From: Phocaeicola sp.
GTDB taxonomy: Bacteria; Bacteroidota; Bacteroidia; Bacteroidales; Bacteroidaceae
NCBI GenBank assembly: GCA_041814865.1
Contig: JBGXXU010000151.1
Span: 15,160-79,159, forward strand
DNA length: 64,000 nucleotides
Direction: 5' to 3'
Shown: positions 42,001 to 64,000 of the stretch, in pieces
Position numbering within the stretch: the stretch's first letter is position 1
How the letters are laid out: the number at the start of each line of letters is the position of its first letter
Position numbers: made by a program

Positions 42001-45000
42001 GTAGTCTTGCCCCAAGGATTTGGGAAATCTTTGCCCATCAAAATCACACCGCCACGAGGACCGCGCAAGGTCTTGTGTGTGGTAGAAGTAACGATATGTG
42101 CGTATTTCACAGGGTTTTCGAGCAATCCTGCTGCAATCAATCCTGCAGGGTGTGCCATATCCACCATGAAGATAGCTCCTATTTTGTCTGCTATTTCGCG
42201 CATGCGTTTGTAATCCCATTCGCGAGAATAAGCGGAACCGCCACCGATGATAAGTTTAGGACGTTCGCGCAAAGCTACTTCTTCCATTTGGTCGTAGTCT
42301 ACACGTCCCGTTTCCTGAGAAACATTGTATTCGCAGGGTGTATACAGAATACCGGAAGTATTCACCAACGAACCATGCGAAAGGTGACCACCGTGTGCAA
42401 GGTTCAATCCCATGAACTTATCGCCGGCATCGAGAACAGCAAGAAATACTGCGGCATTGGCTTGTGCACCGGAGTGAGGTTGTACGTTAGCCCATTCGGC
42501 ACCGAAGATTTCTTTCAATCTGTCGATAGCCAACTGTTCTGTTTTATCCACTACTTCGCAACCGCCGTAATAGCGTTTACCGGGATAACCTTCGGCATAC
42601 TTGTTGGTAAGACAAGAGCCCATGGCTTCCATTACCTGTTCGCTCACGAAATTTTCGGAAGCTATCAATTCGATACCTTTTAATTGTCTTTCGCGTTCTT
42701 CTGCAATCAACTCGAAAATGCGTTCGTCTCTTTTCATGTTTGATATTTTTAGGGTTAATGTAAATCTCTTTTAGAGGTCACAATTTGACAGTCAAAGGTA
42801 AAAACTATTATCGGATATGTATATATCAGGTATCTTTTTTTCGCTCCCGCTCTCCTTCGTGCCTTATTATCATTATATGTTTTTTATTCTTTTATAAATA
42901 GAAAGAAATATATGATGATGATATACCGTTGATAGTAGATATAAATAATCGGCGTTTTGTTTTGATATGAAGTTATCATTATCGAGGTGTGAGATATGAC
43001 AGAATTATACACTATGTTTATTGCTGTGAAATAAGGAATTACGTTACTTATCAACCGATAGTTGAAAACCTGTTTTGTTGAAAAAAAATCTCTTTTTCGT
43101 TGTGGATATGTACATGAATTTCGGTGAATAAAATGCAGGAATACTTCTTTATTTCCCGTTTGGTTGTTTGCGAGAGACTGCGATATGAATGTTTTCGTTT
43201 TATATCCAAATTATATAGCTATATGATATTGATTATCTATCGACAAATTATTCATGCTTTTTCGACCGTTTTCAATGGATAGTATTGAAAAGTCGCTTTT
43301 TTTTGATGAAAGAAAAAGACGTCTACGATGCCTTCTCGATGCGATTATGATGTTAACATTCTTTAACGCTGTTGCTATCGCGATAGCAACATGTTCTTAT
43401 CGCGATGACAACATGATGCTATCGACTTGACAACATGTTGTTATCAAATCGGCAATATATAGCTGATTTGAAGTGCTAAGTTCGGGAGTTAATAAGGTAC
43501 GGGGAGGAATGTTTTGCAAAGCGGAGTCGGCAGGTTGAGGAAATACTGCCTATCTTTGTTTCTCCTTATAAAAAGACAAAATGGAAATGAGAAAGCTGAA
43601 AATAACGGAAATGAATCGCTTGTCCGTAGACGAATACAAAGAAAAGGACAAGCTGCCATTGATAGTGATACTGGACGATGTACGCAGTTTGCACAATGTA
43701 GGTTCCGTGTTTCGTACTTCGGATGCTTTCTTGGTAAAAAAACTCTATCTCTGTGGGATAACTGCTGTTCCGCCTCATCCTGAAATGCACAAGACTGCGC
43801 TCGGAGCAGAGTATTCCGTCGATTGGGTGTATGTGAAAGATGCAGTGGAAGCCGTTGATACGTTATCGAACGAAGGTTATACCGTTCTTGCCATAGAGCA
43901 ATGCGAGGGCAGTACGCTGTTGACGGAAATGGAGATAGACGCGTCGAAAAAATATGCCATCGTCTTGGGAAACGAAGTGAAAGGTGTGCGTCAGGAAGTG
44001 GTAAACAAGTGTCACGGCTGTATAGAAATACCGCAATACGGTACGAAACATTCGCTCAATGTATCTGTTGCCGCAGGGATATTGATTTGTCACTTGTCCA
44101 CAGCATTGATGAAAGGGTAAGAGACGGTGAGAAAACAGTTGTCACGGTGTTGATAACTTCTTTATAATTGTCCGGCTTCCACACGTATTACGATGTGTTC
44201 TATCATTCTGTCTTCTTTTTCGGGATGATATTCTTTTTTCAGACTGGCACCGAACAACGAAGCAAAGGCTTGATAAAAAAAGGCTTTGAACGAACCCATG
44301 AACGCTTTCACCAATTCGTAACCCGAAGAGTGCGTTTGTCTGTTGACAAGTTTGATGAGTAATTTTCCTTGCGAGAAAGTGAGCTTCTTCAAGCGTGGTG
44401 TGTACTGTTTTTTCAATCCTTTTTCCACTTCTTTTATATGTGTCTGCCGTGCTTTTTCGTTGGGCAAGGTTTCGAGATATTCGTAGGTTTCTATGATGAT
44501 GGTGTTTATTTCTTTGGCGATGGGCAATACCTTTTTCACATCGCGTACCAGCTTGTCGAACTTTTTCTTTTCCTTTTCGTTCATGAAACGCCATGTAGAG
44601 TAAACATTGACTTGTGGCATTGTTATGCTCGGTATATATTCTCCTTTATATTCGGCAACAGGAACAAGAAAACCTCCCGGCACCACTTTGATAGAGGTTT
44701 CTTCTTGTGCGTTACCGGAGATAATACATACCGATACGAACAATATAGCTATCCATAATCTGCGCATCATGATGTAGCAAATGTAAAAATAATATCGGCT
44801 GTGTGCGAGGTGTGTATATATATTTATCCTATAGTTGAAGATATTAACGTATGATACTATGTTCAAAACATGGCTTTGTGTCTTGCTTTTTTGTTGCGCT
44901 CGGACGGTATATGCACAAGACGGAATAGGCGAATGGCAAAGTCTGTTCATAGACGATGAACAGGAAATGTACAGAGTCGCAGATTACGAAGAATTGTCCG

Positions 45001-63000: not shown

Positions 63001-64000
63001 GCGTTCGGAAGACAGTCTGTTGAGAAACATTCCTGCCGAAGAAATCGTTTCGAAAGATGTGTACGATGCTGCGGTGCAAGGCGACAAGCTGGCTCAGGAT
63101 ATTTTCGATTATACAGGCAAGATATTGGGCGAAGCATTGGCAAATGCCATCGCATTCTCAAGCCCCGAAGCCATTATTCTTTTCGGAGGTTTGGCACGTT
63201 CCGGCGATTATATCATGAACCCCATCAAACAGGCTATCGAAGAAAATGTGCTGAAGATATATCAGGGAAAAACGCAAGTCGTGCTTTCGCAACTGAAAGA
63301 TGCCGATGCGGCGGTGCTCGGTGCCAGTGCATTGGGTTGGGAAGTAGGAAAAGCCACTACGGCATAACGCTGCCCGAATAACAAACAACATAGCGGCAGC
63401 ACACATACTGCCGAAATCGTCTATCCGCTCCGATATGCACATCGGAGCGGATATTTTTTCTGTTTTTCTTGTTCGCAAAAGACTTCTCCTTGTATCTCGT
63501 CAACTCAAAAACTTAGCACTTCGAACTTGACTATATATTGCCCATTTGATAGCAACATGTTGTCAAGTCGATAGCATCATGTTGCTATCGCGATAAGAAC
63601 ATGTTGCTATCGCGATGACAACAGCGTCAAAGAATGTTAACATCATAATCGCATCGAGAAGCCGTTATAGAGCCGTTTTTTTTTGCTTCAAAAATGATTT
63701 TTTCAATGTTTTCTCGGAACAATAAAAGCATATGTTTGTCCGCTTCGTACACAAAAAAGCCATCACGTCATACGAAATAGCGTACAAGACAACATCGCAC
63801 ATTTTGCAAAGAAGCAAACACGAAGTTCTATCTTTCACGGCAAAGAGAAAGTATGAATCTGTCGGGTTCGCATGGCAAACTCACATTTATGGAGTAATTT
63901 TGACACTGTCCATACGACAAAATGGCACAACTACCTTCTGGCATGAAATTCGCAAGAAAGGAGGTATAAATTAAAAACAGTAATACATTAGCACATAAAA

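Follow-up and report, generated by a model that had tools for sequence, protein, structure and literature searches.

Within a 64,000-nucleotide stretch of a Phocaeicola sp. genome (NCBI GenBank assembly GCA_041814865.1, contig JBGXXU010000151.1, positions 15,160 to 79,159 of the forward strand; this whole stretch is hereafter called the window), genes of Bacteroidales type, including a CTnDOT-like integrase gene with Arm-DNA-bind_5 and OEP/HlyD/MacB efflux genes, are accompanied by four copies of a short repeat built from palindromic 22-bp units. The genome is a 2.13-Mb metagenome-assembled genome (MAG) of 168 contigs, with 44.7% GC and 90% completeness. The window contains eight occurrences of ATCGCGAT, the core of the units, arranged in four pairs set 22 bp apart; ~1.8 would be expected, and none of 100 shuffled sequences reached eight. 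Read in the direction of the element, each locus comprises a leader ending GTTAACATTCTTTGACGC, four head-to-tail 22-bp units and a tail. Units 1 and 2 follow the pattern TGTT-nnn-ATCGCGAT-nnn-AACA, and their variation is confined to four triplets, written here as L1/R1 L2/R2. The features are as follows, in window coordinates; the limits of the conserved parts are approximate.

43300 to 43520, plus strand: conserved part of copy 1, with a leader core ending GTTAACATTCTTTAACGC, four 22-bp units (43370–43457) and a tail
43370 to 43413, plus strand: units 1 and 2 of copy 1, a 44-bp quasi-palindrome, GCT/AGC CTT/GAC ('type D'), spacer forward
43377 to 43384 and 43399 to 43406, plus strand: the two cores of copy 1
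43581 to 44120: SpoU-type methylase gene, downstream of copy 1
51340 to 51560, plus strand: conserved part of copy 2 (units 51410–51497), with a rubrerythrin gene (minus strand) on one side and a methyltransferase gene (plus strand) on the other
51410 to 51453, plus strand: units 1 and 2 of copy 2, GTC/AAG GCT/GAC ('B-inv'), spacer flipped, perfect 16-nt inverted-repeat arms
55230 to 55450, plus strand: conserved part of copy 3 (units 55300–55387)
55300 to 55343, plus strand: units 1 and 2 of copy 3, GTC/AAG GCT/AGC ('A-inv'), spacer flipped, 9-nt arms
63470 to 63690, minus strand: conserved part of copy 4 (units 63536–63623), downstream of a ROK-family kinase gene
63580 to 63623, minus strand: units 1 and 2 of copy 4, GTC/AGC CTT/AGC ('type A'), the form of ~64% of copies

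Copies 1 and 4 carry AGCAACATGTTCTT as the 14-mer separating the first two cores, and copies 2 and 3 carry the exact reverse complement of that sequence. Taken as a whole, the 44-bp block of copy 3 (55300–55343) matches that of copy 1 (43370–43413) exactly in reverse complement. The outer arms also reassort, as seen in the arm triplets, so that all four copies differ and each of the main spacer and arm states is present once among them. An earlier note on this DNA had described all three features, and each is borne out here.

The window copies belong to a family of ~280–310 copies in the MAG, each of ~250–355 bp and made of a leader, four tandem 22-bp dyad units and a tail. Genome-wide, ATCGCGAT is found at 599 sites, against ~33 expected, with 562 of them in the context of the 22-bp unit; a leader-anchored search recovers ~250–280 oriented copies, and the blocks number ~310 in total. 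The orientation counts below compare paralogous copies within this one assembly, using a set of 249 oriented copies. Four forms of the inter-core 14-mer make up most of that set:

AGC..CTT: 187 copies
AGC..CTC: 31 copies
AAG..GCT, the exact reverse complement of AGC..CTT: 17 copies
GAG..GCT, the reverse complement of the CTC form: 3 copies

R1 and L2 are thus completely coupled, with 218 forward copies, 20 flipped copies and none in either mixed class (Fisher p = 1.6e-29), and the half-converted palindromes AGC..GCT and AAG..CTT are absent from all 249 copies. Even the CTC sub-variant has its exact reverse-complement counterpart. Tabulating the arm combinations over all genomic copies, as the earlier note had proposed, therefore extends the pattern from the window to the genome. 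Since the 14-mer is itself near-palindromic, with AACATGTT in its middle, the 'inversion' amounts to four concerted base differences, two per side, and the lack of half-converted forms indicates that these differences arise as one event.

Two smaller palindromes in the hairpin at the leader-side end of the element behave alike. These are 14-mers of the form TGYATA-WW-TATRCA, in which the 2-nt spacer is either AA or TT in an all-or-none manner:

-176 site: AA in 36 copies, TT in 11
-145 site: TT in 48 copies, AA in 9, AT in 1 (the only AT-type intermediate across both sites)

All four combinations of the AA and TT states at the two sites occur; the two leader-end palindromes flip independently of each other.

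These counts bear directly on the proposal that independent point mutations, filtered by selection for the few half-sites that a dimeric DNA-binding protein permits, produced triplets that look like reverse complements by coincidence. The block is strongly constrained, and the triplets can be joined by single steps through GTT/AAC and GCC/GGC, rarer forms that do exist at 2–8 copies each. However, the two-step intermediates AGC..GCT and AAG..CTT are missing from the 249 copies, yet the four-step product is present in 20; the leader-end spacers alternate between AA and TT with a single AT-type intermediate; and half-site selection would not lead one to expect the flip to vary with the outer arms, as it does. 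We therefore consider this explanation highly improbable. Fixed loci whose variants fit simple point mutation on a copy phylogeny were one of two outcomes that the earlier note had said would undo its inference, and the missing intermediates speak against simple point mutation.

The dependence on the outer arms follows the symmetry of the block. ATCGCGATA and TATCGCGAT form 9-nt inverted-repeat arms around a 12-nt spacer, and complementarity between L1 and R2 extends these arms to 16 nt, as in 21 copies, most of the others having arms of 9 nt. Two registers of symmetry overlap in the block, with their centres on CGCG and on CATG. Perfect 16-nt arms are found in 10 flipped and 11 forward copies (48% flipped), whereas copies whose arms are shorter or interrupted comprise 12 flipped and 213 forward ones (5%; p = 7e-7), counts that take in some contig-end copies possibly counted twice. 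When the comparison was restricted to copies at least 200 nt from contig ends, 9 flipped and 5 forward copies remained in the 16-nt class against 8 and 119 in the other (p = 8e-7). A ratio of flipped to forward copies near 1:1 is limited to the 16-nt class. Computed for single-stranded DNA, the hairpins of the 16-nt-arm forms have energies of -17.4 and -16.9 kcal/mol, compared with -11.1 kcal/mol for the dominant form, and are thus ~6 kcal/mol more stable.

A palindromic, high-copy repeat assembled from a metagenome raises the concern that the flipped forms are artefacts of assembly or sequencing. The MAG is fragmented, with 157 of its 336 contig ends lying within a copy; one contig end is a palindromic leader-block-leader form; and leader haplotypes are unlinked to tail haplotypes across the invariant centre, a pattern that mis-joins might create as well. 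Because this is a MAG with copies at its contig ends, some counts and the assignment of loci are uncertain. Artefacts, however, would mostly generate the flipped form of the dominant type, which has 158 copies, and that form is rare (4 copies). Library artefacts at palindromes are minor read fractions. Moreover, which way the spacer lies with respect to the leader is settled within ~22 nt, a span shorter than the usual k-mer (~25 or more) or a read, and reads must therefore contain the flipped junction. An artefactual origin, the other outcome that the earlier note had named as fatal to its inference, hence appears highly unlikely.

The arm-length dependence is reminiscent of inverted-repeat spacer inversion by template switching during replication, which we favour as the probable explanation: a recurrent, arm-length-dependent process, accompanied by some arm homogenisation, rather than a programmed switch. 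Under this mechanism, units 1 and 2 would act as a 44-bp quasi-palindrome centred on CATG, in which the cores with one neighbouring base each would supply the 9-nt arms, and the 12-nt spacer between them would be asymmetric at just two bases per side. A nascent strand would switch to the complementary template within one arm, copy the spacer and return in the other arm, an intermolecular switch that would rewrite the spacer as its reverse complement and turn AGC..CTT into AAG..GCT in one step. Within these hairpins, intramolecular switching could 'correct' one arm to match its partner: a change of L1 from GTC to GCT would make unit 1 a perfect palindrome, and a change of R2 from AGC to GAC would perfect the 16-nt arms of the 44-bp block. 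Such a flip would be reversible and far more frequent with 16-nt arms, so that copies of this class would approach a 1:1 mixture.

In yeast, switching of template between short inverted repeats leads to arm homogenisation as well as spacer inversion; the inversions were observed only where arms exceeded 9 bp, long arms favoured them, and they were reversible (PMC8604942). Our repeat resembles this and related cases of Ripley-type quasi-palindrome mutagenesis (Abraham & Hazkani-Covo 2021, PMC8604942) and short template-switch events (PMC5453318) in that a multi-base change corresponds to the reverse complement of a spacer between perfect arms. As in those cases, inversions are seen with arms of 9 nt or more and are favoured by longer arms, the change would be reversible and parallel, and the same repeats show possible arm 'corrections'. 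It differs in that those comparisons concerned orthologous genes of different strains, whereas here hundreds of paralogous copies of one bacterial repeat are compared; in that the spacer is longer (12 nt, partly palindromic); and in that the substrate consists of tandem palindromes with two overlapping registers. Here, we infer the replication mechanism, and with it the view that the flips are functionless by-products, from the pattern, its statistics and the hairpin energies.

Whether the flips reflect many events or few can be approached through closely related copies. Two copies at different loci, C61:1711 and C140:7148, have flanks that are mutual nearest neighbours, with 8 differences in 158 positions against a median of 19.5 to the nearest copy; 85 bp of their array and tail are identical and their blocks differ by the flip alone. 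They differ as well at one of the leader-end 14-mer sites. Among the five closest copy pairs in the genome, three have identical blocks, one shows a point change and one a flip. These comparisons suggest that the flips are probably recurrent.

The main alternative is that a 'B-type' copy was inverted only once or very few times, long ago, and that the flipped state was then propagated by gene conversion, transposition or duplication, with no flipping that continues or recurs. Consistent with this, every flipped form can be reached from GTC/AAG GCT/GAC by at most one step at R2 (GAC, AAC, GGC or AGC), and flip and R2 are in linkage disequilibrium (r2 0.2–0.3). Copies 2 and 3 of the window are a case in point, as they share extended flanks and are both flipped, which shows that the flipped state is inherited at least sometimes. 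They (window 51230–51680 and 55120–55570) have extra homology of ~95 bp upstream and ~70 bp downstream, which points to a local duplication, and the upstream extension common to both looks like a tail fragment. The two copies differ at R2 and at many positions of an internal ~50-bp patch covering units 3–4, suggesting short-tract conversion from other copies. Some flipped copies are therefore inherited by duplication. A single ancient origin is nevertheless difficult to reconcile with a sister pair that differs by the flip alone, with near-equal numbers of flipped and forward copies in the 16-nt-arm class only, with the presence of flipped copies on many leader and tail haplotypes to which they show no linkage, or with leader-end 14-mers in all four combinations. 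On balance we regard it as unlikely.

Besides the possible double counting of contig-end copies, several points weigh against recurrent template switching. No flips were found among the ~15 copies with GCT..AGC outer arms, most of which carry a ATCGTGAT core that interrupts the arms. On a flank tree of 153 copies, the flipped ones show no clustering (15 copies need 14 changes, compared with 14.4 in shuffles), and control traits show none either. Linkage mapping accounts for this, since the element is a mosaic of separate blocks (leader; L1 with core 1; spacer with R2; unit 3 to tail) with no linkage between them, making a flank tree uninformative on flip history. The association of the flip with R2 = GAC is also expected from common descent of one flipped ancestor, and short-tract gene conversion between copies aligned antiparallel would yield the same products. 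As for the arms, the palindrome-perfecting double substitutions are found in 27 copies (L1 GCT) and ~30 copies (R2 GAC), with single-step neighbours at 2–8 copies each; because such neighbours exist and GCT is linked to a core variant, arm homogenisation is less secure than the spacer flip, and descent is possible.

Alternatively, each 22-bp unit, with its 7-bp inverted arms and 8-bp symmetric core, could be the core site of a site-specific recombinase that flips segments as a programmed, reversible switch. The unit indeed has the arm-spacer-arm shape of tyrosine-recombinase core sites, and in lox/FRT-type sites a palindromic spacer would permit exchange in either alignment. The block is also far better conserved than the remainder of the element: in an alignment of 149 full copies, column identity is 0.93–1.0 over the leader end and units 1–2 but 0.5–0.6 in the outer leader, suggesting protein binding. 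One chimera of the expected leader-block-leader kind exists (C142:5065). On the other hand, cores 22 bp apart are far too close for two-site synapsis on one duplex. The flipped segment measures only 12–14 bp between core centres 22 bp apart and contains no promoter or coding cargo, and a dependence on perfect arm length would be unexpected for a site-specific enzyme. No serine recombinase was found in the genome (at 90% completeness of the MAG). Seven tyrosine recombinases were found, including the integrase of an integrative and conjugative element, and one of them, on contig C35, abuts a copy, which is about the chance expectation, adjacency not having been systematically tabulated. Among ~250 blocks there is one leader-block-leader form and no tail-block-tail form, implying that antiparallel exchange between copies is rare; antiparallel crossover between copies was rejected as an origin of the flips for the same reason. 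The chimera itself (C142:4940–5232) consists of a leader, two units and a second leader in reverse complement, the leaders being 93% identical over 124 nt, as far as the end of the contig; two copies may have undergone a genuine palindromic rearrangement here, or else the assembly folded back on itself. A recombinase switch thus seems very unlikely.

The earlier note had inferred recurrent micro-inversion or half-site shuffling, brought about by cruciform template switching or by a recombinase acting at the cores. Discrete reverse-complement events without intermediates agree with the first part, and their recurrence is probable given the sister pair, the ~1:1 ratio at 16-nt arms and the independent small palindromes. 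Of the two mechanisms, template switching fits the arm-length dependence and the arm 'corrections', while a recombinase is disfavoured by crossovers only 22 bp apart and by the lack of a serine recombinase.

The host repeat is uniform in some respects and variable in others. The number of units is exactly four in 208 of 227 untruncated arrays. In about a third of copies, the 14-mer TGYATA-WW-TATRCA bounds the element at -176 and +159 from the anchor, giving a full length of ~355 bp; these termini are missing from all four window copies. Full-length copies (e.g. C61:1535–1890 and C140:6972–7330) carry TGYATA-WW-TATRCA followed by GAAAC at both ends, and the left-end hairpin combines the terminal 14-mer with a second 14-mer copy 31 bp further in. 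No target-site duplication was evident, and no long terminal repeats were found in window copy 3. Placement is intergenic, between divergent, convergent and tandem gene pairs, with only a weak bias in the orientation of neighbouring genes. Element orientation is also weakly biased against the local sign of GC skew (agreement in 98 of 237; p = 0.009), and where the flanking genes are in tandem, antisense elements outnumber sense ones by ~2:1 (53 versus 27). The right end resembles TTGACG-N17-TATATT, an outward promoter-like site, and intact termini are not associated with co-oriented neighbouring genes. We rejected a role as a regulon operator or promoter cassette on the grounds of the convergent placements, the weak neighbour bias and the independence of intact termini from co-oriented genes. 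One variant locus (C31, at its end on the minus strand, and C103:9560–9789) has a different leader, three tandem reverse-oriented copies of unit 2 (GCT/AAG) and then a terminator-like hairpin; the C31 and C103 contig ends overlap with four base differences in the array, representing two strain alleles or two loci.

The spacing of copies is much more even than expected by chance. Of 161 gaps between neighbouring copies, none is below 1 kb and one is below 2 kb, compared with ~36 expected from random placement; the median gap is 6.9 kb, the coefficient of variation 0.44–0.62, and the number of genes per gap peaks at five. Another copy lies within 3 kb on just 4 of 300 sides of internal copies. 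Such regularity suggests target immunity or a structural role. The only large copy-free gap, of 58.4 kb (window 1–43300; contig C151:95–58536), in which ~7 copies would be expected, holds a CTnDOT-like conjugative element and upstream DNA; it therefore seems that the repeats have not entered this recently acquired element.

Outside this genome the searches gave a single credible match. Neither the pattern, at 2 mismatches, nor BLAST detected a homologue in 107 other species belonging to the same GTDB genus; the double-core pattern had no matches in JGI metagenomes, where a single unit gave one chance match; none was found in viral contigs, plasmids or Rfam; and a literature search for the core motif returned nothing relevant. 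That match is one copy at positions 1–240 of JBGZIN010000016.1, a 4-kb contig assigned to a 'Porphyromonas sp.' MAG (D-86_MAG_10), where it sits at the contig end. The GC content of that contig (0.449) equals that of this genome (0.447), and the contig was probably binned wrongly and derives from the same organism or a close strain, although its remainder has no match in this genome. Comparison with the closest relative (81–86% identity) recovered no empty site, as homology ends at the PEPCK+ORF247 gene block and the neighbouring genes differ.

In architecture, the repeat is closest to BrickBuilt, a Porphyromonas gingivalis MITE (miniature inverted-repeat transposable element) (Klein et al. 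2015, PMC4596501). Both are intergenic, species-restricted and non-coding, occur in Bacteroidales and consist of a leader, unspaced tandem units of ~22–23 nt and a tail. BrickBuilt has 19 copies of 1 to 22.8 units and IS5-type terminal repeats, GAGACCTTTGCA (PMC4596501), whereas our repeat has ~300 copies, a fixed number of four dyad-symmetric units and TGYATA-WW-TATRCA termini, and shares no sequence similarity with it. Only 8 sites resembling GAGACCTTTGCA occur in the whole genome. The repeat is thus MITE-like in being short, non-coding, multi-copy and mainly intergenic, and unlike BrickBuilt in lacking a variable unit number and IS5-type termini. Pneumococcal BOX and enterobacterial REP/BIME elements are likewise high-copy, intergenic and modular, with palindromic units and with modules in varied combinations and orientations. 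The present repeat has no known similarity in sequence to these elements and is set apart from REP/BIME by description, as its units are perfect or near-perfect 22-bp dyads in head-to-tail tandem and not alternating REP hairpins. No PF01797 match to a RAYT (Y1 transposase) was found in the 90%-complete genome, while control genomes were detected. Bacteroides invertons span one to a few hundred bp, bear promoters and need a dedicated Mpi/Tsr-type recombinase. Our repeat shares with them a Bacteroidales host and two orientations between inverted repeats; here, however, the segment is 12–14 bp, without cargo, and no recombinase is seen accompanying the copies.

A more speculative reading is that the 22-bp dyads are bound by a protein specific to this lineage, for instance a transposase, recombinase or nucleoid protein, which keeps the block near-invariant and the copies regularly spaced, and that the 16-nt-arm spacers flip in living populations, protein-assisted or via cruciforms, altering the half-site pattern and the occupancy of the array. 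We give this only a slim chance; if true, it would constitute an ultra-short, genome-wide stochastic switch.

Taken together, the copies amount to a natural replicate experiment, in which ~250 paralogues of one quasi-palindrome show the flipped fraction rising from ~5% to ~50% as the arms grow from 9 to 16 nt. The mutational process is a known one, and this is an unusually well-replicated new instance of it. With template switching as the probable cause, it would provide a clean bacterial illustration of how this process gives multi-base 'inversions' that can be mistaken for recombinase activity or clustered point mutations, and it cautions against reading such repeat patterns as programmed switches. 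The larger curiosity is the family itself: previously undescribed, restricted to one species and ~300 copies strong, it has a dyad array strictly conserved at four units, and its copies are spaced with unusual regularity.

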